This document shows, one piece after another, positions 3,190 to 64,000 of a stretch of 64,000 bases of DNA (its first letter is position 1; every line of letters starts with the position of its first letter). The DNA lies in NCBI GenBank assembly GCA_035492775.1, contig DATJIW010000078.1:46318-110317 (forward strand), in the 5' to 3' direction. Source of the stretch: Vicinamibacterales bacterium (GTDB taxonomy: Bacteria > Acidobacteriota > Vicinamibacteria > Vicinamibacterales > 2-12-FULL-66-21). The position numbers were made by a program, and so were the translations under genes. The notes under the pieces are model-generated. The model saw only the letters and a list, made by a program, of their open reading frames with translations, was not told where the DNA came from and did not search any database.

Positions 3190-3252
3190 GAATCCTCCTG
3201 ACACGAACGCCTGACGCTGCAAGCCGTGCGCCACGAGCCGGTGCACCGTGGA

Positions 3253-8264: not shown

Positions 8265-9797
8265 TCATTCCTTACTTGCGGGCTCGCGTTCAAGTTTGGC
8301 AAGAAATGCGCGAGCGACGACGGCCGGATCCTGATGTTCCTCGTCTACGGCGCGGTTCATCCGGCGCATCTCATCGGCGGTGAGCCGGCCGGCAAGCGAG
8401 GTCAGCGCGGCGCGCACGGCCGGATACCTGAGGAGCACGGATGTCCGGGCAAGCGGTACCGCGTCGTACGGCGGAAAATAATGCCGCGAGTCCTGCAGCA
8501 TCGAGAGGTCATATGCCGCGATGAGGCCGTTGGTGGCGTCGCCGGCGATGAGATCCACCTGGCGTTCGGCGAGCGCGCGATAAATGAGCGAGAGATCCAT
8601 CGCCCGCGGCGGCGCGGCGAATCGGAGGCCGTAGGTGCGCGACAGGCCCGGATAGCCGTCGGCGCGCTGCAGGAACTCGTACCCGAAGCCGGCGCGCCAC
8701 TCGGGCGCGTACTGGCGTACATCGTCGATCGTATGCAGGCCGAGCCGGCGGGCGTCGGCGCCACGCACGAGGATCGCAAACGTATTGTCGAACCCCAGCG
8801 GCGGCAGGACGGTGATCCCTCGATCGGCGTATTGCCTCCGCACGCGCTCCAGCACGCGAGCAGCGTCCGTCTCGGAAGCGTTCTTGAACACCGCGGTGTC
8901 AGCCGTGCCGGTGTATTCGACGTAGAGGTCGATGTCGCCGGACGACAGCGCGGTGTCGCAGATGAACGTGCCGCCCAGGTCCAGTCGCCGTCCTACCGAG
9001 TACCCCGTCTCGTGTTCGATCGCCTGCGCCAGCAGCTCGCCAAGGATGATCTGCTCGGTGAAATTCTTGGAGCCGACCGTGATCCTCGGCGCGGCCCGTC
9101 CCGTCATGGCGAGCGGTATCGTCAGGGCCGCGGCGAGGGCGGCGACCAGGGCCAGGCCAGGCACACGGCGGGAAACAATCAGGCGCTCGATGCCAAGCAA
9201 CAACCCATCGAGCACCAGCGCGAGCGCCGCGGCGGGTACGGCGCCCGCAAGCACCATCGTCGAATCGACCATCGAGAGGCCGCGGAAGATGTATTCGCCC
9301 AGACCGCCGGCTCCAACCGCGGCGGCAATCGTCGCCGTCCCGACGCCGATCACGACTGCGACGCGAATCCCGGCGACGATTGAAGGAAGCGCGAGCGGCA
9401 GCTGAACGCGCCAGAGGAGCTGCCGCGAGGACATGCCCAACGCCGTGCCGGCCTCGATCAAGACCGGGTCGATGCCGCGCATGCCGGTAATCGTCGTCCG
9501 AACGATCGGCAGCAGCGCATACAGGACCAACACCACGATGGCCACGCGCGCGCCGAGGCCGCCGACCAGCGGCAGCGGCAGCAGGAACCCGAACATGGCG
9601 AGACTCGGGATCGTTTGCGCGACGTTAGCCAGCCAGACAATCGGCGCACCGGCGCGCGGCCGGCGCACCGCGAGCAGGCCGGCCGGCACGCCGATCGCAA
9701 TGGCCGCAACCGTCGATATGCCGACGAGGCGGAGGTGCTGCAGGAGCAGCGAGAGAAGCTCCGCACGGTGGGCCGCCAGGAACCTCGTCAGCGTCAC
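8265..9797 (-). CDS. Osmoprotectant ABC transporter, fused permease + substrate-binding protein (OpuC/OpuB-like)
   Basis: The N-terminal half is a binding-protein-dependent permease (TIPSLAMFGFLLP..., EAGTALGMSSRQLLWRVQLPLALP). The C-terminal half is an OpuAC-type glycine-betaine-binding domain (ITVGSKNFTEQIILGELLAQAIE...DLYVEYTGTA). Confidence 0.85.
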   Translation of the reverse strand: MTLTRFLAAHRAELLSLLLQHLRLVGISTVAAIAIGVPAGLLAVRRPRAGAPIVWLANVAQTIPSLAMFGFLLPLPLVGGLGARVAIVVLVLYALLPIVRTTITGMRGIDPVLIEAGTALGMSSRQLLWRVQLPLALPSIVAGIRVAVVIGVGTATIAAAVGAGGLGEYIFRGLSMVDSTMVLAGAVPAAALALVLDGLLLGIERLIVSRRVPGLALVAALAAALTIPLAMTGRAAPRITVGSKNFTEQIILGELLAQAIEHETGYSVGRRLDLGGTFICDTALSSGDIDLYVEYTGTADTAVFKNASETDAARVLERVRRQYADRGITVLPPLGFDNTFAILVRGADARRLGLHTIDDVRQYAPEWRAGFGYEFLQRADGYPGLSRTYGLRFAAPPRAMDLSLIYRALAERQVDLIAGDATNGLIAAYDLSMLQDSRHYFPPYDAVPLARTSVLLRYPAVRAALTSLAGRLTADEMRRMNRAVDEEHQDPAVVARAFLAKLEREPASKE

Positions 9798-13157: not shown

Positions 13158-14333
13158 TCAGCGTCGCGGATCCGCTCCTGCGTTTGCCCGGGCCGCCGCC
13201 ACGATCAGTTCCGCCGCACGCCGGCTCGCACCTGGTTCGCCCAGGCGCGACCGGACGTCGGCAAGGTCGGCGCGGACCTTCGCGGCGTATCGACGGTCGC
13301 GCAGAATCCGCAGCGCCTCGGAGGCCGCCGCCGCCGGAGTGAACGCATCCTGAATCAGCTCCGGTACGACCGTTCGCCCGGCGATCAGATTCGCCATGGC
13401 GTAAGTGTCAACCGTCACGAGCGGCTTGCCGATCCGGTAGGTCAGAGGTGCGACGCGATAGACGACTACCATCGGGCATTCGTGCAGCGCCGCCTGCACG
13501 GTCACGGTGCCCGATGCGACGATCGCGACGTCGGCGCTCGCCAGCGTCGCATCAGCGGCCGCCGTCACGACGACCGGCCCTGTGGCGTGTGCCGGCCAGT
13601 CCTGCAACGGCGCGAACAGCGCGTCGTCCAGATGCGGCGCCCGCGGGATGATGTACTGCGCCTCGGGGACCGCCGCGGCAATGAGCGCAGCGGCCCGCAC
13701 CATGTCGGGCAGCAGCTGCTTCAATTCATTTCTGCGGCTGCCCGGCAGCAGCGCGACGACCGGCTGCCTGGGATCGAGCCCCAGGCCCCGGAGGAACTCG
13801 TCCCGGCTGACGCTCGGCCGCATGTCGAGGAGCGGATGCCCGACGAACGTCGACGGTACCCCCGCTGCCTCGAAAAATGCCGTCTCGAACGGGAAGATCA
13901 CCAGTACGCGGTCGACCACCCGTTTCATGGTCTTCACGCGTCCGGGACGCCAGGCCCACAGCTGCGGGCTGATGTAATAAATGACGGGAATCCGGCGCCG
14001 CTTGAGGGTCCGCGCGACAATCAGGTTGAAGTCGGGGAAATCGATCGGCACGAAGACGTGGGGACGCCGGGTTTCCGCGGCTCGCACCAGCCGCCGATAG
14101 AGCCGCCACGATCGCGGCAGCACGCGAAGCGCTTCGGCGAGTCCCGTCACCGACATCCCGCTGAAGCTGTCGATGAGCGATGCGCCGGCCTCACGCAGCC
14201 GTTCGCCCCCGAACCCCGTGATCTCCGCCTCGGGCTCGAGCTTCAGGATCTCTGCTGCGAGCGCACCGGCGTACAGATCACCGGACGGTTCGCCGCACGA
14301 GATCATGATGCGCAGCCGAGGGCCCGCAGTCAT
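13158..14333 (-). CDS. lpxB: Lipid-A-disaccharide synthase
   Basis: MISCGEPSGDLYAGALAAEI..., FVPIDFPDFNL, PQLWAWRPGR, ASGTVTVQAALHECPMVVVYR are typical LpxB motifs. Confidence 0.85.
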   Translation of the reverse strand: MTAGPRLRIMISCGEPSGDLYAGALAAEILKLEPEAEITGFGGERLREAGASLIDSFSGMSVTGLAEALRVLPRSWRLYRRLVRAAETRRPHVFVPIDFPDFNLIVARTLKRRRIPVIYYISPQLWAWRPGRVKTMKRVVDRVLVIFPFETAFFEAAGVPSTFVGHPLLDMRPSVSRDEFLRGLGLDPRQPVVALLPGSRRNELKQLLPDMVRAAALIAAAVPEAQYIIPRAPHLDDALFAPLQDWPAHATGPVVVTAAADATLASADVAIVASGTVTVQAALHECPMVVVYRVAPLTYRIGKPLVTVDTYAMANLIAGRTVVPELIQDAFTPAAAASEALRILRDRRYAAKVRADLADVRSRLGEPGASRRAAELIVAAARANAGADPRR

Positions 14334-26613: not shown

Positions 26614-26644
26614 AAAAGAAAAGCGGCGCTGACGCGCCGCTTTT
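26614..26644 (-). terminator. Rho-independent terminator downstream of hsp20 (bidirectional-capable)
   Basis: GCGGCGC (26623-29), loop tgac, GCGCCGC (26634-40). Flanked by AAAAGAAAA (26614-22, the U-run on the minus transcript) and TTTT (26641-44). Confidence 0.6.
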
Positions 26645-26647
26645 CTC

Positions 26648-26676
26648 AACTCCCTGCGACCAACTCCCAATTCCAT
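26648..26676. repeat. Degenerate short copy of the CCCAAnT/TTGGGAR heptamer element
   Basis: AACTCCCtgcgaccAACTCCCAATTCCa between the hsp20 stop and its terminator; same heptamer as at 32841, 56115 and 61494. Confidence 0.4.
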
Positions 26677-26723: not shown

Positions 26724-27155
26724 CTACTGCTGCACTTCGATCTGCTTCGGCTTCGCCTCTTCACGCTGCGGCAGCCGAATGGTGAGCACGCCATCTTTGT
26801 ATGTAGCAGCGATGCGCGAGGCATCGACTGTCGCCGGCAGCGTGAAGGACCGGCTGAACGAACCGTACTGCCGCTCGATGCGATGGAACCGATCCTTCGA
26901 CGTCTCGTGCTCCGACTTCCGCTCACCCTTCAACGTGAGCGTGCCGCTGTCGAACGTGACGGCGATGTCCTCACGCTTCATGTCGGGGAGTTCGGCCTTG
27001 ATCACGAACTCGTGGCCCTCGCTCTCGAACACATCCACCGCAGGCACCCACGACCGGGAGTAGGGCTGGCCGTAGAAGTCCGCGAACATCTGATTCAGAC
27101 GGTCGACTTCCATCGACGCCAGCTCGCGAACAGGATCCCAGCGAACCAGTGTCAT
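26724..27155 (-). CDS. Hsp20/alpha-crystallin small heat-shock protein
   Basis: Start ATG 27155 (MTLVRWDPVREL...) with AGGAGG 8 nt upstream. PAVDVFESEGHEFVIKAELPDMKREDIAVT...GVLTIRLP alpha-crystallin domain. Confidence 0.85.
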   Translation of the reverse strand: MTLVRWDPVRELASMEVDRLNQMFADFYGQPYSRSWVPAVDVFESEGHEFVIKAELPDMKREDIAVTFDSGTLTLKGERKSEHETSKDRFHRIERQYGSFSRSFTLPATVDASRIAATYKDGVLTIRLPQREEAKPKQIEVQQ

Positions 27156-27191
27156 GACGTTGTCCTCCTGGAGAAATGATTTCACGACCTC

Positions 27192-31213: not shown

Positions 31214-31956
31214 CGTCGCGAGAACGGCTCGACGTGCTCGTCGTCGAACGCGGATTCGCCGGTTCGCGTGAGCGGGCGAGGGCGCTGATCCTTGCCGGGC
31301 AGGTACGCGTCAACGGCGCCGTCGTATCCAAGGCAGGGACGAGGGTCGACACCAGCGCGGTCATTGATCTCGCGCAGCCGGATCATCCCTACGTCGGCCG
31401 GGGTGGAATCAAGCTCGCGCATGCGCTCGACGCGTTCCAGGTAAATCCGTCGGGGGCCGTCGCGCTGGACGTCGGCGCGTCAACGGGCGGGTTCACTGAC
31501 GTGCTGCTGCGGCGCGGCGCCGCGCACGTCGTGGCGCTCGACGTCGGGCATGGACAGCTCGACTGGAAATTGAGAAACGATCCCCGCGTGACCGTCATCG
31601 AGCGAGTGAATGCCCGCGCGTTGACGGCCGACCAGCTGCCGGCGGCGTTTCGCACGTTCGGTCTGATGACGATGGATCTCTCTTTTATTTCGCTGCGGCA
31701 GGTGCTGCCCGCAGTCGCGCCGCTGCTCGAACCCGGGGGTTCAGCGATTGCGCTCGTGAAGCCGCAGTTCGAGGCGGGCCGCGGCGAGGTCGGCAAGGGT
31801 GGCATCGTCACGGATCCGGCCGTGCAGTCGCGCGTGGTGGAGGATGTGGCCTCCGCGGCCGATAGTCTAGGATTGAGCCGCATCGCGTCCCTGGAATCGC
31901 CGATCACCGGCGCCGAGGGCAACCGCGAATTCTTTCTGCACCTGCGCCGCACATGA
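31210..31956 (+). CDS. tlyA: TlyA-family rRNA (cytidine-2'-O)-methyltransferase
   Basis: S4-like RLDVLVVERGFAGSRERARALILAGQVRVNG; SAM motif LDVGASTGGFTDVLL. Start inferred at TTG 31210, overlapping the ispA TGA. Confidence 0.8.
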   Translation: MTSRERLDVLVVERGFAGSRERARALILAGQVRVNGAVVSKAGTRVDTSAVIDLAQPDHPYVGRGGIKLAHALDAFQVNPSGAVALDVGASTGGFTDVLLRRGAAHVVALDVGHGQLDWKLRNDPRVTVIERVNARALTADQLPAAFRTFGLMTMDLSFISLRQVLPAVAPLLEPGGSAIALVKPQFEAGRGEVGKGGIVTDPAVQSRVVEDVASAADSLGLSRIASLESPITGAEGNREFFLHLRRT

Positions 31957-32831
31957 ACCGAATCTCCAGGGTCGGCCTCGTCGCCAAGCGCCACCTCGAC
32001 GCCGCTGCGGGCGTGCTGGCGGAGCTCGCCGGCTGGCTCGACGCCCGCGGCGTGCGCGCGGTGTTCGAAACGGAAACCGCGCAGCTCGCCGGCGTGCCGT
32101 CCGACTGGCACACCAGCTCACGCGACGATCTGCCCCGCGACTGCGACCTGATCGTCGTGCTGGGCGGCGATGGCACGCTCATCGGCATGGCGGGACGGAT
32201 CGCCAGTGCGGCCGCGTCGGTCCCGATCCTCGGCGTGAATTTCGGCAGCCTCGGATTCCTGACCGAGATCACGCTCGACGAGTTGTTTCCGTCGCTCGAA
32301 TCAGTGCTCAACGGCACCGCCTCAATCGAGCCGCGCGCACTGCTGACGGCGCGCACGATCCGCCAGGAGCAGCCGTTTGCCGAGCACACGGTGCTGAACG
32401 ACATCGTCATAACGAAGGCGGCGCTCTCTCGAATCATCGAGATGACGATCACGGTCGGCGCCGACGCCGTCACCCGTGTCCGCGCGGACGGCCTCATCGT
32501 CGCCACACCCACCGGATCGACGGCCTACAACCTGGCCGCCGGAGGAGCGATCGTGCATCCCGCCGTCGACGCGGTGCTCATCACGCCCATCGCGCCGCAC
32601 ACGCTGGCGAACAGGCCGATAGTCATTCCCGCCAGCTCCGAGGTCCACATCCGGCCGATCATGGAGGCGAACGACGAAGTCTTCGTGACCTTCGATGGTC
32701 AGTCGGGTTTCCCACTCGCCGTCAACGACGTCGTGACGATCCGCCGATCGCGCCAGCCGCTGTATCTCGTCAAATCCGCCAACCGGACCTACTTCGACGT
32801 CCTGCGGCAGAAATTGAAGTGGGGTGGATAG
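31953..32831 (+). CDS. nadK: NAD(+) kinase
   Basis: DLIVVLGGDGTLI, NFGSLGFLTE, ADGLIVATPTGSTAYNLAAGG; ATGA overlap with tlyA. Confidence 0.85.
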   Translation: MNRISRVGLVAKRHLDAAAGVLAELAGWLDARGVRAVFETETAQLAGVPSDWHTSSRDDLPRDCDLIVVLGGDGTLIGMAGRIASAAASVPILGVNFGSLGFLTEITLDELFPSLESVLNGTASIEPRALLTARTIRQEQPFAEHTVLNDIVITKAALSRIIEMTITVGADAVTRVRADGLIVATPTGSTAYNLAAGGAIVHPAVDAVLITPIAPHTLANRPIVIPASSEVHIRPIMEANDEVFVTFDGQSGFPLAVNDVVTIRRSRQPLYLVKSANRTYFDVLRQKLKWGG

Positions 32832-32840
32832 GGAATCGTT

Positions 32841-32964
32841 AATTCCCAACTCCCAACTCCCAACTCCCAATTTCGATAAAGCCCGGTTGGGAGTTCAGTT
32901 GGGAATTGACTAGAAAATTGAGAATGAAATTGGGAATTGGGAGTTGGGAGTTGGGAGTTGGGAC
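32841..32964. repeat. Inverted arrays of heptamer TTGGGAR / YTCCCAA (C-arm 32841-32873, partial 32887-32908, G-arm 32929-32964)
   Basis: Direct reading: aaTTCCCAACTCCCAACTCCCAACTCCCAAttt ... ATTGGGAATTGGGAGTTGGGAGTTGGGAGTTGGGA. Fills the spacer between the nadK stop and the mltG stop. Confidence 0.85.
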
Positions 32965-34008
32965 TTAAGGATTTCCTCCGCCGTCCTTGAGTTTGCGGTC
33001 GCGGAAATACTTCCGCTGAAATTCTTCCACGTTGCGGTTGTGCTCCTCGAGCGTCGAAGCAAACGCATGCGTGCCGTCGTTGCGGCTGACGAAGTACAGG
33101 TACGACACGTCCGCGGGATGCGCGGCGGCTTCGAGCGAGCTGCGTCCCGGATTGGCGATCGGACCGGGCGGCAGGCCGGCATACCGATAGGTGTTGTAGG
33201 GCGAGTCGAACGCGAGGCTCTCTCGGGTGAGATTGCCGTTGTATTGGCCCGCGCGCTCGAGCGCATAGATGACGGTGGGGTCGCACTGCAGTCCCATGCC
33301 GATCTTCAGGCGGTTGGAGTAGACGGCGGCGACGAGCGCGCGCTCGGATGCATCGCCGGTTTCCTTTTCGACGATGGACGCCAGCGTGACCAGCTGCCGC
33401 ACGCCCAGGCCGCGTGAGGCCGCCTGCTCTCGAATCTCCGGCGTGAGCGCCTTCTGAAAGCCCGCTACCATCCGGGCGACGAGCTGGTCGGCGGTCGCGC
33501 GGCGCGGCAACGCATAGGTCTCCGGAAACAGGTAACCTTCGAGGTCTTCCGCCGCGGGATCGATGGACGAAACGAGCGCGGTTTTGTGCGCCGCGGTCAT
33601 GAAGGCGTCAGCCGTGCCGAATCCCTTCTGCTCGTACAAGTCCGCCATCTGGCGCATCGTCAGCCCTTCGGGAAACGTGATCGGCCGCAGGTACACCTCG
33701 CCCCGCGCGATCATGTCGACGACCTGACGGGCGGTCAGCGGACGATCGAACCGGTACTCCCCTGCTTCGAGCCGCCGGCCTTTTCCCGTCAGCCACACGG
33801 CGAGCCGGAAGGTCACCGCATCGCGCACGACTCCCGCCTCCGCCAGACGGCGGCCGATGCCTGCCGGCCCGGCGCCCTGTGGAATCTCCACGAACTGCTC
33901 CGCACTTTCGTAACCTTTATAAGGACGGCTGACCCCCGCGAATAGCCAGACGACGACGCCGGCGGACAGCAGGATCAGAACGAGGCAGACGATAAGAAGG
34001 CGCTTCAA
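32965..34008 (-). CDS. mltG: Endolytic murein transglycosylase (YceG-like)
   Basis: N-terminal TM anchor; ...LASIVEKETG...ERALVAAVYSNRLK..MGLQCDPTVIY...YNTYRYAGLPPGPIANPG are typical MltG motifs. Confidence 0.85.
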   Translation of the reverse strand: MKRLLIVCLVLILLSAGVVVWLFAGVSRPYKGYESAEQFVEIPQGAGPAGIGRRLAEAGVVRDAVTFRLAVWLTGKGRRLEAGEYRFDRPLTARQVVDMIARGEVYLRPITFPEGLTMRQMADLYEQKGFGTADAFMTAAHKTALVSSIDPAAEDLEGYLFPETYALPRRATADQLVARMVAGFQKALTPEIREQAASRGLGVRQLVTLASIVEKETGDASERALVAAVYSNRLKIGMGLQCDPTVIYALERAGQYNGNLTRESLAFDSPYNTYRYAGLPPGPIANPGRSSLEAAAHPADVSYLYFVSRNDGTHAFASTLEEHNRNVEEFQRKYFRDRKLKDGGGNP

Positions 34009-36965: not shown

Positions 36966-37041
36966 AGGCGCGTAGCTCAGTGGTTAGAGCGCCTGCTTGA
37001 CACGCAGGAGGTCAGTGGTTCGACTCCACCCGCGCCTACCA
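36966..37041 (+). tRNA. tRNA-Val (anticodon GAC)
   Basis: 76 nt folded by hand: acceptor AGGCGCG/CGCGCCT, D-arm GCTC-AGTGGTTA-GAGC, anticodon arm CCTGC-TTGACAC-GCAGG, T-arm with GGTTCGACTCC, encoded CCA. Confidence 0.9.
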
Positions 37042-40400: not shown

Positions 40401-41462
40401 GATCGCCCAACGAGTGCTCTAGAACCGCGAATGGACATTTCTTCTCTCCGCAGACAATTCGATGCCGATCTCGCTGCCGCAGCGAGTGAGGCGCAGTTGC
40501 GCGCGGTGCGGGACCGCTATCTTGCCCGCAGCGGGGGCCTCGTCTCGAACCTGCTCCGGGAGGTCAGTGCTGCGCCGGCGGCGGAGCGTCCCGTCCTTGG
40601 AAAACAGGCCAACGAGCTCAAGAAATACATCGACGACGCGATCAAAGCGTGTGTCGTCCGGACGACGTCGCCGGGAGCCGACGCGCTGGACGTCACACTC
40701 CCCGGGCGCCGGCCTCTGCTCGGCCATCGGCATCCGCTCACCCTGCTGCGCGAGCAGATCGAGGCCTTCTTCCAGCGCATCGGGTTCCTGATCGTCGAAG
40801 GCCCCGAACTCGAGGACGACTACCACAACTTCGAAGCGCTCAACATGCCGGCGGAGCATCCCGCGCGCGACATGCAGGACACGCTGTATCTCGCATCGCC
40901 GGTACGGTCCGCTGTCGGAGTGCTCGCGACGCTCCTGCGCACGCACACCTCGGGCATGCAGGTCCGCTACATGGAGCGGTTCCAGCCGCCTGTGCGTCTC
41001 ATCGCACCCGGGCGCGTCTACCGTCGCGACAATCTCGACCTGACACATACGCCGATGTTCACCCAGGTCGAAGGTCTCGTCGTGGATGAGGGAATCACTC
41101 TGGCGGATCTCAAGGGGACCCTCGTCGCGTTCGCGCGGGAAATGTTCGGCGCCGATCGGCAGACACGGTTCCGTCCGAGCTTCTTCCCCTATACGGAGCC
41201 GAGCGCGGAACTCGACATCAGCTGCGCAGCCTGCAGTGGTACGGGATGCCCGATGTGCAAGCACACGGGATGGATCGAAGTACTCGGCAGCGGCATGGTG
41301 CACCCGGCCGTGTTCGAGGCGGTCGGCTACGATCCGGAGCGGTTCACGGGTTTCGCGTTCGGCGTCGGCATCGAGCGGATGGCGCTCCTCAAGTGGGGCG
41401 TCGAAGACATCCGTCTCTTTTACGAGAATGATCTGCGCTTCCTGGAGCAGTTCCCGCTGTGA
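40392..41462 (+). CDS. pheS: Phenylalanine--tRNA ligase alpha subunit
   Basis: Class II motifs (HPLTLLREQIEAFF, FEALNMPAEHPARDMQDT, RTHTSGMQVR, GRVYRRD, FRPSFFPYTEPSAE, GSGMVHP, AFGVGIERMALL). TTG 40392 has AGGAG 8 nt upstream; the alternative ATG 40431 lacks an SD. Confidence 0.9.
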   Translation: MISDRPTSALEPRMDISSLRRQFDADLAAAASEAQLRAVRDRYLARSGGLVSNLLREVSAAPAAERPVLGKQANELKKYIDDAIKACVVRTTSPGADALDVTLPGRRPLLGHRHPLTLLREQIEAFFQRIGFLIVEGPELEDDYHNFEALNMPAEHPARDMQDTLYLASPVRSAVGVLATLLRTHTSGMQVRYMERFQPPVRLIAPGRVYRRDNLDLTHTPMFTQVEGLVVDEGITLADLKGTLVAFAREMFGADRQTRFRPSFFPYTEPSAELDISCAACSGTGCPMCKHTGWIEVLGSGMVHPAVFEAVGYDPERFTGFAFGVGIERMALLKWGVEDIRLFYENDLRFLEQFPL

Positions 41463-43588
41463 GGCTGCCGCTCGAGTGGCTCTACGAGTTCGTCGAGGTT
41501 CCGCGCGACCCGGATGCCGTCGCGCGCGCGCTCGGCCTGCGCGGGTTCGAAGTGGCTGCCGTCGAACACACGCCGCACGCGGTGATCGATTTCGAGATCA
41601 CCGCGAACCGCCCCGACTGCCTGTCGATCGTCGGCCTCGCCCGGGAGGCCGCGGCGGCGTTCGGACAGGCGCTGAAGGTGCCGGAGGCGCGGGCCTCCTC
41701 TCCAGACGCCGCCGGGACAGCCGCAGCGGTCGACGTGGAGATTCAGGACGCGCTCGCCTGCCCACGCTATTGCGCGCAGGTATTCGAGGTCCGCGCTGGA
41801 AGTCCGACTCCCGCGTGGATGCGCGAGCGGCTCGAGGCGGCCGGGGTCCGCGCCATCGATCCGATCGTCGACGTCACGAATTACGTCATGCTCGAAACGG
41901 GGCACCCGACGCACGCGTTCGATCTGGAGAGACTTCGCGGCCGCGCCCTGCGCATCCGGCCGGCGAGTGCCGGTGAACGGATCCGCACCCTCGACGGCGT
42001 CGACCGCGCGCTCGACGCCGACATGCTCGTGATCGCCGACGCCGAGCGGCCTCAGGCGATCGCTGGCGTCATGGGCGGCGCCGAATCGGAGATCGGGGGC
42101 ACGACACGGACGATGGTGCTGGAAAGCGCGTATTTTCAGCCGGCGTCGGTCCGGCGAACCAGCAAGCGTCTGGGTTTGAAAACGGAAGCCTCGTCACGGT
42201 TCGAGCGCGGCGCAGACATCAACGCAGCGCCGGCCGCGGTCGCGCGCGCGTCGGCGCTCTTCGAGCAGCTGGGGGTCGCGCAGGCTGCCGGGCCGCTGAT
42301 CGACCGCTACCCCGCCCCGCGCCAGCCAGTCACGCTGACGCTGCGCGGCCGCCGCATCGCGCACGTGCTCGGTATGCCGGTCGCGGACAGCTCGGTCTCG
42401 CCAATCCTCACGCCGCTCGGCTTCGCAGTCGCACCGGAACAAGAAGGGCGACCTGACGCCGAACGAGAACACGAACAGGAACCGGGAATCCGCACTGCCG
42501 AACCGCCGAACCGCCGCACTGCCGAACCACGCGCGACATCCTGGTCTGTGACCGTTCCGACCTTCCGCGTCGACGTGCAGCGCGAAATCGATCTCATCGA
42601 AGAGGTCGCCAGGCACGACGGCTATGCCAGCCTTCCTGCGACGTTCCCGGAACTGGCCGCCGCGCAGGCTCCGCCCGACGCGCGCACGCTGCTCGATCGG
42701 CGGCTGCGGCACGTGCTGACCGCGTGCGGCATGTCGGAAGCGATGACGTTCGCGTTCATCGAGCGCGCGGCCGCACTTCCGTTCCTGCGGGACGCAGAAC
42801 CTGCCGCCCTTGCGAATCCGTTGTCGGAGAAATACGCGGTGCTCCGCCCGTCGCTCGTCCCCGGTCTGATCGATGCGGCGGCCCACAACAGACGACGCGA
42901 GCGCAAGGATGTCCGGCTCTTCGAGACCGGGACCCGGTTCACTCCCTCCGGAGAAAACCGCGCCGTCGCGGGCATCTGGATGGGCGCGGCCGTGGCGGCG
43001 CACTGGGCCGAGAAGCCTCGACCCGTTGACTTCTACGACGTGAAGGGAATTGTAGAGGCGTTGCTCTCGGCGCTCGGGCTCGAAGCGCGGTTCGAGCCGC
43101 TGGCGCGAGGCTGCTTCGAGCAGGGATACAGCGCAGGGGTCGTGACGCCGGCAGGGACTGCGCTCGGCGAGATGGGTCAGCTCGCAGTCAGCGTACTCGA
43201 TGCGCGCGGACTGTCGGCCTCGGAGCCGGCCTTCGTGTTCGAACTCGACGTCGACGCTGCGGCAGCGGCGCAACGCTCCGGCGATTTGCGCGCCGAATCG
43301 CTGCCCCGCTTCCCCGCGATCGTGCGCGACCTCTCGATTCTCGTCGACAATGGCTTGCCTGCAGCCACGGTTCGTGGCACTATCCGAGCGGCGGCCCCGG
43401 AAACGCTGGTCGGGATGATCGAATTCGATCGGTATCGAGGCGCGGGCGTACCTGAAGGACGGATCAGCCTCTCGCTGCGTCTGACGTTCCGTTCGACCGA
43501 TCGGACGCTGACCGACGCCGAGGTCGACGCCGCCATGACCGGGATCGTCGAGGCGCTCGCGTCCGCACACGGCGCGGTTCGTCGCTGA
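41459..43588 (+). CDS. pheT: Phenylalanine--tRNA ligase beta subunit (short form lacking the OB tRNA-binding domain; with low-complexity insertion)
   Basis: B1 (MRLPLEWLYEFVEV), then directly the B3/4 region (AVIDFEITANRPDCLS). B5, FDX-ACB-like C-terminus (FPAIVRDLSILVD...FDRYRG...SLSLRLTFRS). GTGA overlap with pheS. Confidence 0.9.
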   Translation: MRLPLEWLYEFVEVPRDPDAVARALGLRGFEVAAVEHTPHAVIDFEITANRPDCLSIVGLAREAAAAFGQALKVPEARASSPDAAGTAAAVDVEIQDALACPRYCAQVFEVRAGSPTPAWMRERLEAAGVRAIDPIVDVTNYVMLETGHPTHAFDLERLRGRALRIRPASAGERIRTLDGVDRALDADMLVIADAERPQAIAGVMGGAESEIGGTTRTMVLESAYFQPASVRRTSKRLGLKTEASSRFERGADINAAPAAVARASALFEQLGVAQAAGPLIDRYPAPRQPVTLTLRGRRIAHVLGMPVADSSVSPILTPLGFAVAPEQEGRPDAEREHEQEPGIRTAEPPNRRTAEPRATSWSVTVPTFRVDVQREIDLIEEVARHDGYASLPATFPELAAAQAPPDARTLLDRRLRHVLTACGMSEAMTFAFIERAAALPFLRDAEPAALANPLSEKYAVLRPSLVPGLIDAAAHNRRRERKDVRLFETGTRFTPSGENRAVAGIWMGAAVAAHWAEKPRPVDFYDVKGIVEALLSALGLEARFEPLARGCFEQGYSAGVVTPAGTALGEMGQLAVSVLDARGLSASEPAFVFELDVDAAAAAQRSGDLRAESLPRFPAIVRDLSILVDNGLPAATVRGTIRAAAPETLVGMIEFDRYRGAGVPEGRISLSLRLTFRSTDRTLTDAEVDAAMTGIVEALASAHGAVRR

Positions 43589-44419: not shown

Positions 44420-44605
44420 ACATTCGGCAGCTGGAACTCGCAGGTTCGTAGTTTCGCCGAGATCCCTGCTTTGCGCGTGATGGATCGGAGGCTCGGTTTG
44501 AGCCAATGTTCCATCCAAGCGAATCGCGACGCTGCGCCGTGTGCATGCCTCTGTTCCGAGGAAGCCTGACGCGTGGCTTGACCAGCGGTTCCACCTGCTT
44601 AGTGC
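44420..44605 (+). ncRNA. ssrS: Candidate 6S RNA (ends approximate)
   Basis: Lies immediately 3' of zapA, the classical ssrS position. 44500-44566 is co-linear with my recollection of the E. coli 6S central-bubble/terminal-stem region (GAGCC.AU.UU.CAU.CCA...GAAU...CGCU.CGC...GCAUGC...UCCGAG.AAGCC). An interrupted 16-bp closing helix joins 44427-45 and 44581-98. No credible ORF. Confidence 0.55.
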
Positions 44606-44806
44606 AGGTTCAAACGACCTCCCCACACGGCAAAGCGGGGGCTTTCCGCGGCGTCGCCGCGAGGTGACGGGTACTTGGTACCTCGAATGGGTGCCGGGTA
44701 TGAGGCGCCGCACCAACCCGCCCGGCCCCCATTCAAGGCACGAAAGCCCCCGGCATTCGGCGCGAAGCGCGGAGACCACCAAGATCTAGTACGCTTGCGC
44801 GTGACG

Positions 44807-55338: not shown

Positions 55339-56052
55339 TCACGTCATCGAGATGCCGCTGACGTGGCCCCGCATCAGCGCGTCCTTCATCAGGCGGCTGC
55401 CGACATCGAGGTGTTCTTCCATGCGTCCGCGGGCGCCGGCGGGGTCGTGCGCCGCGATCGCTTCGACGATTTGACGGTGGGCCTCGGACGCGTTGTCCTG
55501 AAACGGCCCGAAGCTGACGCCGAGCGACATGAACCGATCGACCTGCGCGAGGCATCGCTCGATCAACTCGAGGGCGAGCCCGTTACGGGCCGCGCCGGCG
55601 ATTGCGAGATGGAACTGGACGTTGGCCACTTCCGATTCGCGATAACTCTGCGATGCGCGAATCGGAACCGCCGCCAGTCGCCGCAGACGATCGATTTCCT
55701 CGGCGGTCGCCAGCTCGGCAGCACGTGCCGCGGCCGCACCCTCGAGCAGCCGACGGACGTCGAACGTGTCGTGAATCTGCTGGACCGTGACGCGCGCCAC
55801 GAAATACCCGTGCCCGACGACACGCTCGAGATAGCCCTCCTGCCACAGGCGCGCGAGGCCCTCTCGAATAGGCGTGCGGCTCATCCCATGTTCAAGTGCG
55901 AGGGTGACTTCTGACAGAGGAGCGCCTGGACGGTATCGGCCTTCGACGATACCCGCCTTGAGGTTGCTGTAGGCGCGCTCGACATGCGGCGCCGGGCTGA
56001 GGCCGTCACGAGGCGAATCCGTGCGCCGCGGCGATCGTCCACGGGCCTTCAT
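55339..56052 (-). CDS. GntR-family transcriptional regulator (FadR/FCD-type C-terminal domain)
   Basis: wHTH LSEVTLALEHGMSRTPIREGLARLWQEGYLERVVGHGYFV, then a helical FCD-like effector domain. Directly upstream of, and co-oriented with, the TonB receptor. Confidence 0.8.
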   Translation of the reverse strand: MKARGRSPRRTDSPRDGLSPAPHVERAYSNLKAGIVEGRYRPGAPLSEVTLALEHGMSRTPIREGLARLWQEGYLERVVGHGYFVARVTVQQIHDTFDVRRLLEGAAAARAAELATAEEIDRLRRLAAVPIRASQSYRESEVANVQFHLAIAGAARNGLALELIERCLAQVDRFMSLGVSFGPFQDNASEAHRQIVEAIAAHDPAGARGRMEEHLDVGSRLMKDALMRGHVSGISMT

Positions 56053-56114: not shown

Positions 56115-56197
56115 AACTCCCAATTCCCAACGCCCAATTCCCAAATTGGGAGTTAAGAATGAGAATTGGGGGTTGGGAGTTGGGAATTGGGAGTTGA
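56115..56197. repeat. Inverted TTGGGAR/YTCCCAA heptamer arrays in the gntR / OM-barrel divergent spacer
   Basis: AACTCCCAATTCCCAACGCCCAATTCCCAAATTGGGAGTTaagaatgagaATTGGGGGTTGGGAGTTGGGAATTGGGAGTTGAG. Shares the AGAATGArAATTGGG core with the 32841 locus. Confidence 0.8.
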
Positions 56198-56276
56198 GAA
56201 TGCTATCCTCAATAAGCCTTTCCCAGCAGGCTCCTGCGACCTGTTTTCCCAAAATCAACCGGGGCGAGAACCAGTC

Positions 56277-57131: not shown

Positions 57132-59909
57132 TCAGTTCAGCCTCACCCAGGCGCCGAGGAATCGGGAATCCCTGCTCCCCTGCTCCGACGGACGGAAGCC
57201 AGACGACGAGCGCAACTGCACAAGTGCGGCGCCGCGGGACGCATCCATCGGCACCTGAAGGTCGCGCGTTTCACCGGGAGCGAGCGCGACCGTCTGATGC
57301 CAGGAGCCCGAGACGACGTCCAGCTCGTTCGACACCGGCGCGTTCCGAACGGTGAGCCTGACGACGGACGAGATCGCGTCGGGTGCCACGACGATCGACG
57401 TGGATCGGGCGCCACCCACCCAGAAGCCCGATGGCTCCGCGAAGGCACGGTCGTCGAGGAAATACACGATCGACCCGTCGTAGCGCACAGCGCGTCGCGC
57501 GGGCTCGCTCGTGAGGCGGTCGCGGGGGTCGAGCAGCCGCAACGGATGAAGCACCACGCGATTGATCGCATCGCGCGCCTGTTCGTCGACGCGGACCACG
57601 ATCGACGGCACGTCGACGGGGAGCCGCAGCGTCACACCTGATTCGAGCACCGCCAGCGGCTGGGTGAGGATCGCGAACTGATCCTGCGCGATCCCGGCCA
57701 TCAGCCATCCATCGCTGCGCTGCGCGTCGATCGAAAGCCGGTAATCGCCCGCAGGAACCCCCGGCAGGATCGCCAGCGGGCGGCCGCCGCGCGGACCCGG
57801 ACGGGCGTGGGATGACGACACGTCGGCGGCGATCGACATCGAAGCGACGTAGTCTTCACGCGAGACGACTTTCTTCCCCCGCACGTCGACGACGATCGGC
57901 CTCGAAGATATCGCCCGAAGGGCCGCGAGCTGCGACGGCGCGGCGCGGAGCGGTGTTGCGCCCGTCGCCTGCCACACGATTGTTGCGCTGGCCATGATCA
58001 TCGCGGCGGCCGACCACGTGACTGCGGCCGCCAGATGCCCCTCGCGCAAACGTGAGCGCCGCATCACGAGCACGATCAGGGCTGCGCCGGCTATCCAGGG
58101 GATTGCCGCGAACATTCCTGCGCGCGCAGCGGCATGCCGTGCCTCGACGGCTGTGCCGATCGGCAGCGGCACGAAGCCGGGAAGCGCCGATGGAAGATCC
58201 ACGGCGCGGCTCGCCCACTCCGCCCATGGTGCGGCCGTCGCCCCCGATTCGTTGCGCGAGTGGTATGCCAGACGGCCGCCGCCAACGCCCACCATCGCCG
58301 CGGAAAGCCAGACACTCACGGCGAGCGCGGCAATCATCACCGCGCGCATCCCGGGGCGCCTCGATGTCTCCGCCCAGGCCTGCGCCGCCGGAAGCGCGAG
58401 AGGCAACACGAGCGGCACCAGGAATCGCGCAGGCCCGCTCCACCCTGCCCACCACATCGCGAATGTCGCGACGGCCAGCAGATATGGAATCCCGACGACC
58501 GCATATTCGAGGGCGAAACGCCGAAGGCGCGTGAATCCCACCAGCGCAACCGTGAGGACCGGCGCGGTGACCAGCAGCCCGAATCCCTGGTCGAAGAACA
58601 AGCCGCCAATCCCATTGGACAGATAACTGAACGAGTTCTGCGCCTGCCGTCCGTACGGCGCCGACGGATCCGGCATGCCGTAGACAATCACAAAGAAGAA
58701 CAGCCACGACAGCGCGCTCGCGGCCGGCACGGCCAGAAACGCGATCGCCTTCGCAAGCGGGTTCGGGGTGCGCGACAGGCGCAGCAGCACCAGACCGCCA
58801 AGCGTCGCCGCGATCACCGCGAACCGCGTGTGCATCCACGGGAGCAGCGCCAGCGCGGCGCCGTGAAGGAACCACGGCATCCATCGTTCGCTCCGCGTGC
58901 GGCGTTCCCAGTCCGCGCGCATGAGCGCCCACACTCCGGTAAGCACGACGCCCGCACCGGGACCATCGGGATAGACCGTGAAGGTTTCCACCAGAAACGG
59001 CGCTGACAGCGCAACTGCCGCCCATCCGAACCATGCAGCCGCAGCGCTGTCCGTGAGCCGCCATGCGAGCCACCACGCCAGCGCCGACGCCGCGGCCGCC
59101 GCAAGCAGCAGGAACACGACGACCCCGTGATAGCCCGCGACCGCGAACGCCGGCAGCACGAGCGCCGGCACACCCGGGGCGTGAATCGAATAAATCTCGC
59201 CATTGCGGCCGCGCTGCACGTAGTCGGGATTGAGGTCGCCGGCGAAGTACGCGTGGTAATCCCCGCGGCGGTGGTTGTTCTCGATCTTCAAATCGTGGTC
59301 GTACAGCAGGCTCTGCGTGATGACGAGATAGTGCGGCTCGTCACCCCCGGGAAGCGATGGCGACGCAAACCACGCCGCAAGCGCAAACAGAACGAACGAG
59401 ACGACGCCGGCGCGGAGACATTGTCTCGATGGCGGCGTCGCGTTGACGGTGAGGATGTCGCGACGCGTGACGGCCATCACCCCGAGGGCGCATCCCATCC
59501 ACACGAGGCCGAGCATCGGGCCCGTCCAGATGAGGAACGCGGGCGGAACGCGGAACGGAATCCACGGCAGGAGCACGAGCGCAAGCGGCGAGATCGCGAC
59601 GAGCACGCCGCGCGCGCGCCCCGGCCGCCAGGCAGCGGCGCCCGCGAACACGCCGACGATCAACGCGAGCGCCAGGTGCCACAGATCGATCGGCACCAGC
59701 GCCGCACGGCCCTGTCCGTCCGCTGTCAGCGCGAACGACGCGAACGACAGCCAGGCCGCGACGGCGACGATCGCGGCGGCGCACACGGCAGGCAATCGCG
59801 ATGACGGTAGAATGACGGCAATTCTACATGGACGACCGTTCGGACCTGCGGCTTCGCGAAGCCGTGACGGTCTGCCTGGCAGGCCTCGCGCTCGCGGTCC
59901 TGATGACAT
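57132..59909 (-). CDS. Large polytopic membrane protein, GT-C-like N-terminal region + ~300-aa C-terminal extracytoplasmic domain
   Basis: Up to 925 aa; more than 12 hydrophobic helices over ~620 aa with an acidic first-loop motif (PGGDEPHYLVITQSLLYDHD), then a soluble beta-rich C-terminus. Start uncertain: in-frame TTG 59795 or GTG 59786 would remove the 82-nt overlap with the divergent gene. Confidence 0.6.
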   Translation of the reverse strand: MSSGPRARGLPGRPSRLREAAGPNGRPCRIAVILPSSRLPAVCAAAIVAVAAWLSFASFALTADGQGRAALVPIDLWHLALALIVGVFAGAAAWRPGRARGVLVAISPLALVLLPWIPFRVPPAFLIWTGPMLGLVWMGCALGVMAVTRRDILTVNATPPSRQCLRAGVVSFVLFALAAWFASPSLPGGDEPHYLVITQSLLYDHDLKIENNHRRGDYHAYFAGDLNPDYVQRGRNGEIYSIHAPGVPALVLPAFAVAGYHGVVVFLLLAAAAASALAWWLAWRLTDSAAAAWFGWAAVALSAPFLVETFTVYPDGPGAGVVLTGVWALMRADWERRTRSERWMPWFLHGAALALLPWMHTRFAVIAATLGGLVLLRLSRTPNPLAKAIAFLAVPAASALSWLFFFVIVYGMPDPSAPYGRQAQNSFSYLSNGIGGLFFDQGFGLLVTAPVLTVALVGFTRLRRFALEYAVVGIPYLLAVATFAMWWAGWSGPARFLVPLVLPLALPAAQAWAETSRRPGMRAVMIAALAVSVWLSAAMVGVGGGRLAYHSRNESGATAAPWAEWASRAVDLPSALPGFVPLPIGTAVEARHAAARAGMFAAIPWIAGAALIVLVMRRSRLREGHLAAAVTWSAAAMIMASATIVWQATGATPLRAAPSQLAALRAISSRPIVVDVRGKKVVSREDYVASMSIAADVSSSHARPGPRGGRPLAILPGVPAGDYRLSIDAQRSDGWLMAGIAQDQFAILTQPLAVLESGVTLRLPVDVPSIVVRVDEQARDAINRVVLHPLRLLDPRDRLTSEPARRAVRYDGSIVYFLDDRAFAEPSGFWVGGARSTSIVVAPDAISSVVRLTVRNAPVSNELDVVSGSWHQTVALAPGETRDLQVPMDASRGAALVQLRSSSGFRPSEQGSRDSRFLGAWVRLN

Positions 59910-61480
59910 GGCCGCTCGCTGCAGGGCTCGGCCGCCTCGGTAGAACCAGCAGTGCTGACGGTCAGTTCAGCATCTGGAACGTGTCGTGGGTCGCACAGAC
60001 GATCGTCGCGGCGCCGCAGCGCCTCTTCGACGCGAACATCTTCTTCCCGCACTCGACCACCCTCGCGTATTCCGAAGCCAACGTCCTCGAAGGCATCGCG
60101 GGCGTGCCGGTCTGGTGGTCGACGCGCAATCCGTACGCCACGCTGAACGTCGTCGTCCTGCTCGCGTTCGCGACGTCGTTCGTTTGCATGTACTTTCTGG
60201 CGCGCCGGCTGTCGGGCCCCGGCGGTGCCGCCGTCGCGGGCGTGTTATACGCGTGCTGCCCGTATGTGTTCTCCCATACACCTCATATCCAGCTCCTCGT
60301 GACCGCGGGGCTGCCACTCTCGATGCTGATGCTCGACCGCGTCGTCGAATCGCCATCGCCCGCGCGCGGGCTCGGCCTCGGGCTCGCGCTTGCGGCGCAG
60401 ACGCTGTCGTGTGCGTACTACGGCATCTTCGCGGCGCTGATGGTGGGGTCTGCTGCGCTCATGCTGAGCGCAACCCGCGGCACGTGGCGTCGGCCTGCGT
60501 ATTGGCTCTCGCTCGCGGTCGGCGCGTTCGTGTCAATCGCACTCGTGCTGCCGGTGTTCGAGCAGTACCTGCGCGTCAGGAGTGAGACCGATTTCGGCCG
60601 CACTATCGATGACGCCGCACACTGGTCCGCAAAGCCGCAGGACTACATCGTATCGTCCGCGCACGCGCACGCATGGCTGCTCGACATCGCGAAGCACTTC
60701 GAGCACTGGGAGGAAGTGCTCTTTCCCGGAGTCCTCGCTGTGCTATTCGGTGCGGCGGGATTCGTCCTGACGGCACGCCGCGGAGCGGATCGCAGGGCCC
60801 GCGAAACGGCGCTGGTGTATGGTTCGCTCGGCGGATTGGCGCTCTGGAGTTCGTTCGGGCCGGCGGCGGGGCTGTACCGGCTGCTCTTTCATCTGCCGCT
60901 GTTCTCGTTTCTCCGCGCTCCGTCGCGCTTCGGCCTGATCGTCGCGCTGTCACTGTCGGTGTTTGCGGCCTTTGGAGTCGAGGCGCTACTGGCGCGCGTG
61001 CCGCGTCGCGCACGGCGGCTGGTCGCGGCATCGCTCGTCGCCGCGGCGCTTCTCGAGTTGAACGTGCTGCCATTCCCGTGGGAGCGGGCGCCGATCGTGC
61101 CGTCGCCGTATCGCGCGCTGGCGGCGCTGCCGCGTGCCCCGCTCGCGGAGTTTCCATTCTACGGCCAGCGCACCACGTTCCCGCTGCACGCCCAATACAT
61201 GCTCTTCTCGACGGCGCACTGGATGCCGCTCGTGAACGGCTACAGCGACGTCATCCCGCTCGACTTCCGCGCCACGGCGAGGGTCCTATCGTCGTTTCCA
61301 ACGAACGACGCATTCGCCGTCCTTCTCCGGCACCGGGTCCGCTACATCGGCGTGCACTGGGATATGTACGGTCCGCGCTCGGACGATATCCGCCGTCGGC
61401 TGGAGGCGTATTCGTCAAACCTCCGCGTCATCGCCGGCGACGCGAGGATGACTCTTTACGAGATCACCGGGTATCCGTAG
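59828..61480 (+). CDS. Polytopic membrane protein, GT-C/YfhO-like putative glycosyltransferase
   Basis: 550 aa, multi-TM. N-terminal loop ADGQFSIWNVSWVAQTI...LFDANIFFPHSTTLAYSEANVLEGI and a C-terminal soluble tail (VRYIGVHWDMYGP...). Family assignment by pattern only. Confidence 0.6.
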   Translation: MDDRSDLRLREAVTVCLAGLALAVLMTWPLAAGLGRLGRTSSADGQFSIWNVSWVAQTIVAAPQRLFDANIFFPHSTTLAYSEANVLEGIAGVPVWWSTRNPYATLNVVVLLAFATSFVCMYFLARRLSGPGGAAVAGVLYACCPYVFSHTPHIQLLVTAGLPLSMLMLDRVVESPSPARGLGLGLALAAQTLSCAYYGIFAALMVGSAALMLSATRGTWRRPAYWLSLAVGAFVSIALVLPVFEQYLRVRSETDFGRTIDDAAHWSAKPQDYIVSSAHAHAWLLDIAKHFEHWEEVLFPGVLAVLFGAAGFVLTARRGADRRARETALVYGSLGGLALWSSFGPAAGLYRLLFHLPLFSFLRAPSRFGLIVALSLSVFAAFGVEALLARVPRRARRLVAASLVAAALLELNVLPFPWERAPIVPSPYRALAALPRAPLAEFPFYGQRTTFPLHAQYMLFSTAHWMPLVNGYSDVIPLDFRATARVLSSFPTNDAFAVLLRHRVRYIGVHWDMYGPRSDDIRRRLEAYSSNLRVIAGDARMTLYEITGYP

Positions 61481-61493
61481 GAGGAATTGCGTC

Positions 61494-61523
61494 AACTCCC
61501 AATTCCCAATTCCCAACTCCCAA
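61494..61523. repeat. Single-arm YTCCCAA heptamer array (4 units)
   Basis: AACTCCCAATTCCCAATTCCCAACTCCCAAG, 14 nt after the stop of the + strand gene. Confidence 0.75.
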
Positions 61524-61527
61524 GACG

Positions 61528-61612
61528 GCGCTCCGCACCCGCGCTCCGCACCCGCGCTCCGCACCCGCGCTCCGCACCCGCACGCCGCACCCGCACGCCG
61601 CACCCGCACCCC
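61528..61612. repeat. 13-nt tandem repeat array (4x GCGCTCCGCACCC, 2x GCACGCCGCACCC, partial GCACCC)
   Basis: Read directly; units at 61528, 61541, 61554, 61567, 61580 and 61593. The array ends at the stop codon of the slt-like gene (TAG, complement of 61612-14). Confidence 0.85.
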
Positions 61613-63912: not shown

Positions 63913-64000
63913 CAAACGGCGGAGCCGAGCAGCGCCGCGTCGCCGTCCGCGAGCGTCTGCACGAGTTCCTGTTGAAAGTAGACCGAGCGTCCGCCGATCG
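63912..64000 (-). CDS. C-terminal fragment of an unidentified protein (gene continues beyond window end)
   Basis: Minus-strand frame open from the window edge to TGA (complement of 63912-14): ...IGGRSVYFQQELVQTLADGDAALLGSAV*. Confidence 0.3.
   Translation of the reverse strand, partial: IGGRSVYFQQELVQTLADGDAALLGSAV

Follow-up and report, generated by a model that had tools for sequence, protein, structure and literature searches.

The window analysed here is a stretch of 64,000 nucleotides, with a G+C content of about 66%, from a Vicinamibacterales bacterium of the phylum Acidobacteriota (contig DATJIW010000078.1 of assembly GCA_035492775.1). In this window, nadK, the gene for NAD kinase, converges with mltG (yceG), and a homologue search found the product of the latter to be 100% identical to a protein named MltG of a Vicinamibacterales metagenome-assembled genome (MAG). 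The two genes are separated by a spacer of 133 nt, almost all of which is taken up by two opposed tandem arrays of the heptamer TTGGGAR, a C-rich arm followed by a G-rich arm. This element, called copy 1 below, is probably best read as opposed arrays of a G-rich heptameric simple sequence repeat (SSR) that vary by replication slippage and act as a putative 3' hairpin lacking a U-tract. The arrays probably belong to a genome-wide family in this bacterium.

Opposed arrays and their predicted folding

The C-arm of copy 1 has four units and the G-arm five (Table 1). Tandem Repeats Finder (TRF) assigned a period of 7 nt to both, with 3.9 copies at 100% match in the C-arm and 4.9 copies at 96% match in the G-arm. 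The first exact TCCCAA hexamer lies 12 nt after the nadK stop codon (9 nt for the arm as delimited), and the G-arm ends 1 nt short of the stop codon of mltG. The original prediction, made from the letters of the DNA, had described the C-arm, both stop codons and an internal partial copy, TTGGGAGTTCAGTTGGGAATTG, and direct reading confirmed all of these. The sequence of the G-arm was also correct, although its end had been set one base too far, at 32964, which is a C. The arms had been called reverse complements of each other. With four units against five they are near, not exact, complements, and they form a perfect 31-bp stem all the same. From its layout, TTGGGAGTTCAGTTGGGAATTG appears to consist of decayed units of a once longer G-array. 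The sequence of copy 1 was found again in independent metagenome assemblies and is therefore not an assembly artefact. A reading of the spacer as small open reading frames (ORFs) was rejected; the ORFs across the arrays are mechanical and overlap the real genes in antisense. A lone GGGAATC at the nadK stop codon lies opposite the first C-arm unit and makes a mini-palindrome, GGGAAT-cgtta-ATTCCC, with it (32831-32847).

Folded as RNA, copy 1 has a minimum free energy (MFE) of -69.8 kcal/mol on the plus strand and of -62.2 kcal/mol on the minus strand; z is about -10, and none of the shuffles folded equally well. A hairpin on either transcript, with the C-arm coming first and no U-tract, had been predicted, and the 31-bp stem agrees with this. 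No run of at least four T follows the stem on either strand (3' flanks CUUAAGGAUUUCC on the plus strand and AAUUAACGAUUCC on the minus strand). A terminator scan reported no site at the element; the same scan also missed a canonical hairpin at 26617-26650. No Rfam family reached its gathering score at the element, and a permissive setting returned sub-threshold hairpin models of eukaryotic miRNA precursors alone.

Each arm consists of four to five GGG tracts with 4-nt loops, and the predicted fit to the G3N4 motif of a G-quadruplex (G4) holds formally. When the G-quadruplex option of ViennaRNA was used, the MFE of the full element was unchanged and no G4 was present in the MFE structure, while an isolated arm gained only about 8-12 kcal/mol from a G4. 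With both arms on one strand, the folding model favours the hairpin over the G4 by about 50-60 kcal/mol. In this model, the hairpin dominates when both arms are present, and G4 or i-motif formation is likely to be relevant for lone arms only, such as that of copy 3, whose minus strand is predicted to form a G4.

The heptamer is strongly enriched in the window. A three-unit pattern with at most two mismatches matched 12 times against 0.00 expected from shuffles, and a two-unit pattern matched 17 times against 0.06 expected. Three clear array loci were found, two in convergent spacers and one in a divergent spacer. All the arrays are intergenic and lie 1-21 nt from the nearest ORF end within this 64-kb sample. 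Only two convergent spacers of the window are long, the two that contain arrays; the rest measure 6-65 nt. The five arms have 4, 5, 4, 5 and 4 units (TRF copy numbers 3.9, 4.9, 3.9, 4.4 and 4.4, each with period 7) and are tandem TCCCAAC units without self-complementarity. Copies 1 and 2 have a common layout of four C-units, one or more G-units, the 12-mer TTRAGAATGARA, and four to five G-units. The 12-mer stands directly 5' of the G-arm in both copies and has two window matches against 0.27 expected. The A/G unit variants come in a common order in both arms of copy 2. The loops measure 58 nt in copy 1 and about 21 nt in copy 2, which folds with an RNA MFE of -51.8 kcal/mol (z -6.3).

The contexts of the copies differ. 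Copy 2 lies in the divergent spacer between a GntR/FCD regulator gene (55339-56052, minus strand) and an ORF starting near 56277 (plus strand). Copy 3 begins 14 nt past the stop of a PMT_2-family gene (59828-61480, plus strand), which is convergent with an SLT/TPR gene (61612-63915, minus strand). Related copies had been predicted at 56115, 61494 and 26648; the first two are real, and the third is a degenerate remnant with one exact hexamer. The proposal of a dispersed family instead of a bespoke terminator is borne out by the three window loci in different contexts and by the arrays that other Vicinamibacterales and Acidobacteriota MAGs carry.

Table 1. Positions of the heptamer arrays and associated features in the window
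Feature	Position	Strand	Description and basis
nadK (NAD kinase gene)	31953..32831	+	ORF; Pfam NAD_kinase and NAD_kinase_C; stop TAG 32829-32831
mltG/yceG gene	32965..34008	-	ORF; Pfam YceG; stop TAA 32965-32967 (minus strand)
Whole hairpin-forming element	32839..32968		31-bp stem, 4 flanking pairs, loop of about 58 nt
C-arm, copy 1	32841..32873		aaTTCCCAA (CTCCCAA)x3 ttt, 4 units; direct reading and TRF
G-arm, copy 1	32929..32963		(ATTGGGA)x2 (GTTGGGA)x3, 5 units; direct reading and TRF
Internal partial G-units TTGGGAGTTCAGTTGGGAATTG	32887..32908		within loop; direct reading
12-mer TTGAGAATGAAA	32918..32929	+	immediately 5' of copy 1 G-arm; counterpart in copy 2 is TTAAGAATGAGA, 56153-56164
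Lone GGGAATC (the Xanthomonas unit)	32831..32837	+	overlaps last base of nadK stop; direct reading
Copy 2	56115..56199		C-arm of 4 units (56115-56144), one G-unit, 12-mer TTAAGAATGAGA, G-arm of 4-5 units (56166-56199)
Copy 3	61494..61523		C-arm alone, 4 units
13-nt tandem array (GCGCTCCGCACCC)x6.2	61528..61607		adjoins copy 3 and fills rest of spacer; TRF
Degenerate remnant caactccctgcgaccaacTCCCAAttcc	26648..26675		one exact hexamer; downstream of HSP20 gene (26724-27185, -)

Several other features of the window were recorded. The 13-nt GCGCTCCGCACCC array beside copy 3 is G-rich and self-complementary on the minus strand, with an RNA MFE of -40.5 kcal/mol. Beside the degenerate remnant, a canonical terminator-like hairpin (26617-26650, minus strand) reads GCGGCGC-gtca-GCGCCGC followed by TTTTCTTTT; its T-run indicates that the organism also uses U-tract terminators. 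An 8-nt repeat, GCCGAACC, occurs four times with 83% match at 42497-42528, inside a long ORF (41459-43588, plus strand). Ordinary Rfam matches at the gathering score were a 6S RNA (44460-44645, plus strand, 71.1 bits) and a tRNA gene (36966-37038, plus strand).

Variation among strains, relatives and distant genomes

Contigs from JGI soil metagenomes that encode a NadK identical to that of the window were compared. In the 200 nt aligned, they differ from the window in nothing but the number of units in the G-arm, which is five in the window, L123 and L124, six in L122 and seven in L121. The C-arm is constant at four units in all strain variants seen, and the alleles with six and seven G-units keep the hairpin when folded. 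Copy 2 has one unit more in L207. The heptamer arm of copy 3 is constant among strains, and the adjoining 13-mer/GC-rich array varies, which results in spacers of 131, 144 and 216 nt. The 13-nt array differs strongly in length and unit composition (L208, 2880-3070; L209, 2880-2998) despite an identical PMT_2 product. Because contigs with identical flanks differ by whole units only, it can be concluded that the arrays change by slippage. The gain or loss of a whole 7-nt unit between identical flanks is the signature of replication slippage, not of transposition.

The nadK-mltG synteny is conserved in relatives, and 36 loci with convergent nadK and mltG, whose NadK proteins are 58-100% identical to that of the window, were compared. 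At 14 loci the spacer is under 40 nt and holds no repeat, at 18 loci it measures 50-382 nt and 14 of these 18 carry tandem arrays of 7-8-nt units, and at 4 loci it exceeds 600 nt and contains inserted genes. At least seven of the arrayed spacers, namely those of the window, L129, L138, L154, L173, L183 and L187, hold inverted arrays with z at or below -5. Different lineages have different units, among them ATGTGGAA/ATTTGGAA-type octamers, GGGATTC, GGGATCN, TGGTCTT, CAATCGT and CAGCTAT. TTGGTAR units occur in an 88% relative, and TCCCAAC...GTTGGGA is found again in L183. Inverted arrays are also located 3' of nadK in L165 (GCCAGTT) and L177 (GGGGTCC), in neither of which a convergent mltG was found. 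Among relatives at 83-85% MltG identity, L210 has a repeat-free spacer of 30 nt, L212 a 224-nt spacer with a single unit at each end, and L128 a C-arm alone. Two of the four long spacers contain a Y1_Tnp transposase, which is IS200-like and similar to the transposases (RAYTs) that mobilise repetitive extragenic palindromic (REP) elements, with REP-like GGTGCCAGGTCTG repeats on either side.

Since the orthologous spacers are nearly empty, at 0-30 nt, or hold other 7-8-nt units or inserted genes, the element is dispensable and evolutionarily short-lived. Presence/absence polymorphism in orthologous spacers applies to relatives and not to near-identical strains, which differ by whole units. The inverted units of relatives include types without G-runs, namely the ATGTGGAA/ATTTGGAA-type octamers, CAATCGT and TGGTCTT. 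Together with the preference of the folding model for the hairpin when both arms are present, this indicates that the common feature of the arrays is the hairpin, not the capacity to form G4s.

Further repeats were observed in these relatives. An insert of about 1.1 kb in L143 (1596-2772) and L168 encodes a Y1_Tnp with a helix-turn-helix tail and has palindromic GGTGCCAGGTCTGCG/GGGGTCAGGTCTG units on both flanks. These REP-like units also occur 3' of nadK in L131, L134 and L178, and none is present in the window. Between xseB and xseA, L212 carries TTAGAGG x8.3 (14070-14127), where window-type contigs have a 24-nt spacer. Other spacers contain GGATTAG x10.6 and GGTGCGG x11 (L138, 4473-4546; L140, 3740-3814). 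In L213, opposed GGTTCG/CGAACCGC arrays occupy 3144-3312; CGAACCGC, which is related to the window octamer GCCGAACC, forms a long intergenic array there. Vicinamibacterales seem in general to carry intergenic arrays of short units.

TTGGGAR arrays in other genomes were sought with the pattern TTGGGARTTGGGARTTGGGA in one genome per species; at least three exact units were required, and at least 120 stretches were obtained. The following counts refer to the matches listed. Most of them are from filamentous cyanobacteria, which have long arrays of up to 19 units. TTGGGAR arrays were also found in Vicinamibacterales and other Acidobacteriota, Gemmatimonadaceae, Chloroflexota, Bacteroidota, Verrucomicrobiota and a Xanthomonas. 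An opposed partner was present for 3 of 124 arrays at low-GC, mostly cyanobacterial loci, and within 250 nt for 24 of 51 arrays at high-GC loci. The order in the high-GC pairs was C-then-G in 20 cases and G-then-C in 4. Three units were counted 23 times and four units 16 times at high-GC loci, in a scan that needed at least three exact units. Other unit types at the nadK spacer run G-then-C, so the C-then-G polarity is specific to the TTGGGAR unit. In this order the stem can close during transcription of the G-arm, whichever strand is read, which suits a hairpin better than it does an RNA G4. Context classes were assigned for the window only; the GC3-based gene caller used elsewhere makes spurious intragenic calls and misses genes.

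Viral contigs yielded 14 stretches among 2.9 million, a number that gives no sign of phage carriage. One contig classed as viral, L224 (IMGVR_UViG_3300035688_000092, 64% G+C), has five TTGGGAR arrays, including an opposed G-then-C pair, with array positions at 407-507, 1306-1339, 8934-8960 and 9704-9744; this contig could be a prophage, or a piece of a related bacterium that was misclassified. Nearly all high-GC arrays among the matches listed keep GTTG before the sequence diverges. GTTGAC, a -35-like hexamer (TTGACN), follows the last unit in 7 of the 51. It was recorded at the G-strand 3' ends of L018, L035, L042, L115, L116 and window copy 3 (61485-61497, minus strand).

Explanations for the element

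A slippage-variable array with a 3' hairpin could arise and act as follows. Slippage would seed and expand the arrays in spacers in which an insertion causes little damage, and the opposed arm would originate by inverted duplication or by hairpin-templated copying. The hairpin would then form 3'-terminally in both convergent transcripts, in which the C-arm is transcribed first and the stem may close as the G-arm emerges. Such a stem-loop without a U-tract might block exonucleases, thereby stabilising 3' ends, and/or hinder read-through into the opposing gene, and its strength would be tunable by the number of units.

Several observations weigh against this explanation. Many relatives have no hairpin in the nadK-mltG spacer, so a role there cannot be an essential one. 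The spacer of copy 2 is a divergent one (a promoter region) and copy 3 has one arm; therefore, a role as a 3' hairpin cannot explain the whole family. Slippage alone accounts neither for the recurrence of one unit at several loci in one genome and in several phyla, nor for the 12-mer that copies 1 and 2 have in common at the same position. The 12-mer hints at duplicative spread or at selection for a binding site, and together with the recurrence of the unit it leaves room for duplicative spread or a binding protein. The unit-number alleles come from short-read assemblies, in which the arrays are shorter than a read.

Three rival explanations were weighed against the slippage-variable hairpin. 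If the arms were G4/i-motif elements, the G3N4 arms would fold as G4s and the C-arms as i-motifs, in DNA or RNA, and these structures, in place of the hairpin, would be selected, for example to pause polymerases or to recruit G4-binding proteins. The tracts and loops of each arm are suitable, exactly four units are present in three of the five window arms, a G4 is predicted for the lone arm of copy 3, and the related GGGAATC and GGGGAYT repeats, which prefer four units, form K+-dependent G4s in vitro (PMC4692102). The energy of the competing hairpin and the absence of any G4 from the MFE structure count against it, and the dominant C-then-G order lets the stem close and disfavours RNA G4s. Moreover, relatives have inverted arrays without G-runs in the nadK-mltG spacer, and GCCAGTT is found 3' of nadK in L165. 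The G4 idea of the original prediction keeps its formal fit to the motif, G4 formation as the key property is not supported, and an element selected for G4 formation is considered unlikely.

About as unlikely is a non-autonomous mobile element, comparable to MITEs (miniature inverted-repeat transposable elements) or REPINs, in which a C-arm, a short core and a G-arm are copied into new intergenic positions by a transposase encoded elsewhere in the genome. One unit at several loci in non-equivalent contexts, the common layout of copies 1 and 2 with a 12-mer that occurs only at those two copies, and the common order of A/G variants in both arms of copy 2 are in keeping with it, as is the Y1 transposase with REP-like flanks in the same spacer of relatives. 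The REP/MITE-like character that had been proposed was nevertheless not recovered in the window. The flanks of copies 1-3 have no direct target-site duplications, lengths and loops differ, copy 3 is one-armed, the arms are not palindromic REP units, no REP-like motif is present, and a tblastn search of the window with the Y1_Tnp protein of relatives found no RAYT homologue (best E 0.35). In addition, strains differ by whole units and not by presence or absence, the pattern is rare in viral contigs, and the Xanthomonas repeats of the (GGGANTN)n class are not associated with mobile elements (PMC4692102). The least probable of the explanations considered is a protein-binding array, in which the heptamer is a multimeric site for a genome-specific DNA- or RNA-binding protein, such as a nucleoid-associated protein, a regulator or an RNA chaperone. 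The recurrence of one unit across loci would be due to selection for binding; a genome-specific unit is reused at several loci, and TTGGGAR is also present in distant phyla. Copy 2 lies in a promoter region beside a GntR-family regulator gene, and a binding protein was proposed for the TAACTGA heptamer arrays (PMC4679880). On the other side, no candidate protein was identified, the contexts are heterogeneous, and unit number and even presence vary freely among strains and relatives.

Rho utilisation, for which a C-rich segment would come first, was rejected as a general explanation; other units of the nadK spacer run G-then-C, and the C-arm is only 28 nt long. A telomeric repeat was likewise rejected. 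The likeness to telomere repeats that had been pointed out is formal only, and the position of the element is internal, with housekeeping genes of conserved synteny on both sides.

A broader version of the slippage-variable hairpin can also be formulated. In Vicinamibacterales, and perhaps in further GC-rich bacteria, Xanthomonas among them, a sequence-independent process might build and maintain "hairpin SSRs", with arms of tandem 7-8-nt repeats, as bidirectional 3'-end or insulator elements that lack a U-tract and are tuned among strains by slippage. This generalisation is speculative and ranks in probability below the G4 and mobile-element accounts. If it were true, hairpin SSRs would provide heritable and rapidly variable control of read-through between neighbouring genes, and the C-then-G polarity of TTGGGAR pairs and the common 12-mer would reflect the mechanism of their formation or spread.

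Relation to described repeats

Heptanucleotide arrays are among the most abundant unexplained repeats of large bacterial genomes, and the nadK-mltG locus adds soil Acidobacteriota to Xanthomonas and Nostoc as bearers of the G-rich, paired form. No new kind of system is revealed. What the metagenome comparison adds is that whole-unit changes occur between otherwise identical strains, that the nadK-mltG spacer of relatives may be empty, filled with a different repeat or occupied by a transposon, with turnover between these states, and that the opposed-array hairpin layout recurs with units incapable of G4 formation. Attention thereby moves from G-quadruplexes to hairpins and the mutational process behind them. 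The natural allele series, with 0, 4, 5, 6 and 7 units, is suited to tests of effects on transcript ends.

The element resembles intrinsic terminators in having a stable stem-loop right downstream of both stop codons. In contrast to them, it has no U-tract on either side, a far longer stem (31 bp) and a far larger loop (about 58 nt). REP, BIME (bacterial interspersed mosaic element) and REPIN elements, which are thought to stabilise mRNA 3' ends, are likewise dispersed, intergenic, hairpin-forming inverted repeats that are frequent at 3' ends and between convergent genes. However, REP and REPIN sequences are imperfect palindromes of 20-40 nt with a fixed sequence, mobilised by RAYTs, whereas the window arms are tandem 7-mers in variable number.

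Mrazek et al. 2007, as cited in PMC4679880 and PMC4692102, found heptanucleotides to be the commonest long SSRs (LSSRs) in large GC-rich genomes and proposed that long SSRs arise by polymerase slippage. As that work is cited, the window arrays agree with LSSRs (units of 5-11 nt) in their heptamer period, their intergenic position in a high-GC non-pathogen genome, and the slippage-type change in copy number, which is seen directly at window loci. As cited, the LSSR is a statistical category, which predicts neither the opposed-pair hairpin layout nor the reuse of one unit at many loci.

The short tandemly repeated repetitive (STRR) sequences of Calothrix and Nostoc, as far as they are described where cited (PMC4692102), are also tandem heptamers that are dispersed, intergenic and patchy across phyla. 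The same is true of the TAACTGA arrays of Beggiatoaceae, Cyanobacteria and Bacteroidetes (MacGregor 2015, PMC4679880), which differ in unit sequence and are sited just upstream of start codons. The host in the present case is a member of the Vicinamibacterales and not a heterocystous cyanobacterium, and cyanobacterial TTGGGAR arrays differ from those of the window in being long and, among the matches listed, almost never opposed. Published STRR units presumably differ in sequence from the window unit. In the literature searched, no paper on such repeats in Acidobacteriota was found, and queries with the unit itself (TTGGGAG/CTCCCAA, two-unit strings) returned irrelevant matches only.

The closest counterpart is the class of repeats described by Rehm et al. 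2015, with GGGAATC and other (GGGANTN)n repeats in Xanthomonas and GGGGA(C/T)T in Nostoc PCC 7120 (PMC4692102). In Xanthomonas, about 185 arrays are present per genome; roughly 90% are intergenic, and four units are commonest. Most of them lie at most 50 bp from ORF ends, they are rare between divergent genes, and array pairs on opposite strands are close together in 70-75 cases and capable of forming stem-loops. Array length varies extensively between Xcc and Xac, with no link to mobile elements. The K+-dependent G4 formation of the repeats was demonstrated by circular dichroism, and G4-capable repeats coincide with starts or stops of Xanthomonas transcripts more frequently than controls do; no function was identified for the Xanthomonas and Nostoc heptamer repeats (all PMC4692102).

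The original prediction had recognised no described repeat family, and this must be revised. The element is a G-rich heptanucleotide SSR of the (GGGANTN)n class, which is hereby extended from Xanthomonas and Nostoc to soil Acidobacteriota. As in that class, a 7-nt unit is repeated head-to-tail over at least 14 bp in total (the window arrays have a TRF period of 7), and the window units GGGAGTT and GGGAATT fit GGGANTN, with positions 1-4 and 6 conserved. The window arrays are dispersed, intergenic and close to ORF ends, opposed pairs are present at two of the three window loci, and array length differs between close relatives. The window arms have four or five units each. Differences from the published class were also found. 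No window array has the GGGAATC unit that was the search criterion of those authors, and the lone GGGAATC at the nadK stop codon is outside the arrays. The phylum is a different one, and G4 formation was shown there in vitro and comes here from a folding model only. The arms of the pairs described here are mostly C-then-G among the matches listed, while the paper calls its pairs "convergent" (PMC4692102). Finally, the relatives of this Vicinamibacterales bacterium put units that are not G-rich into the same opposed architecture.

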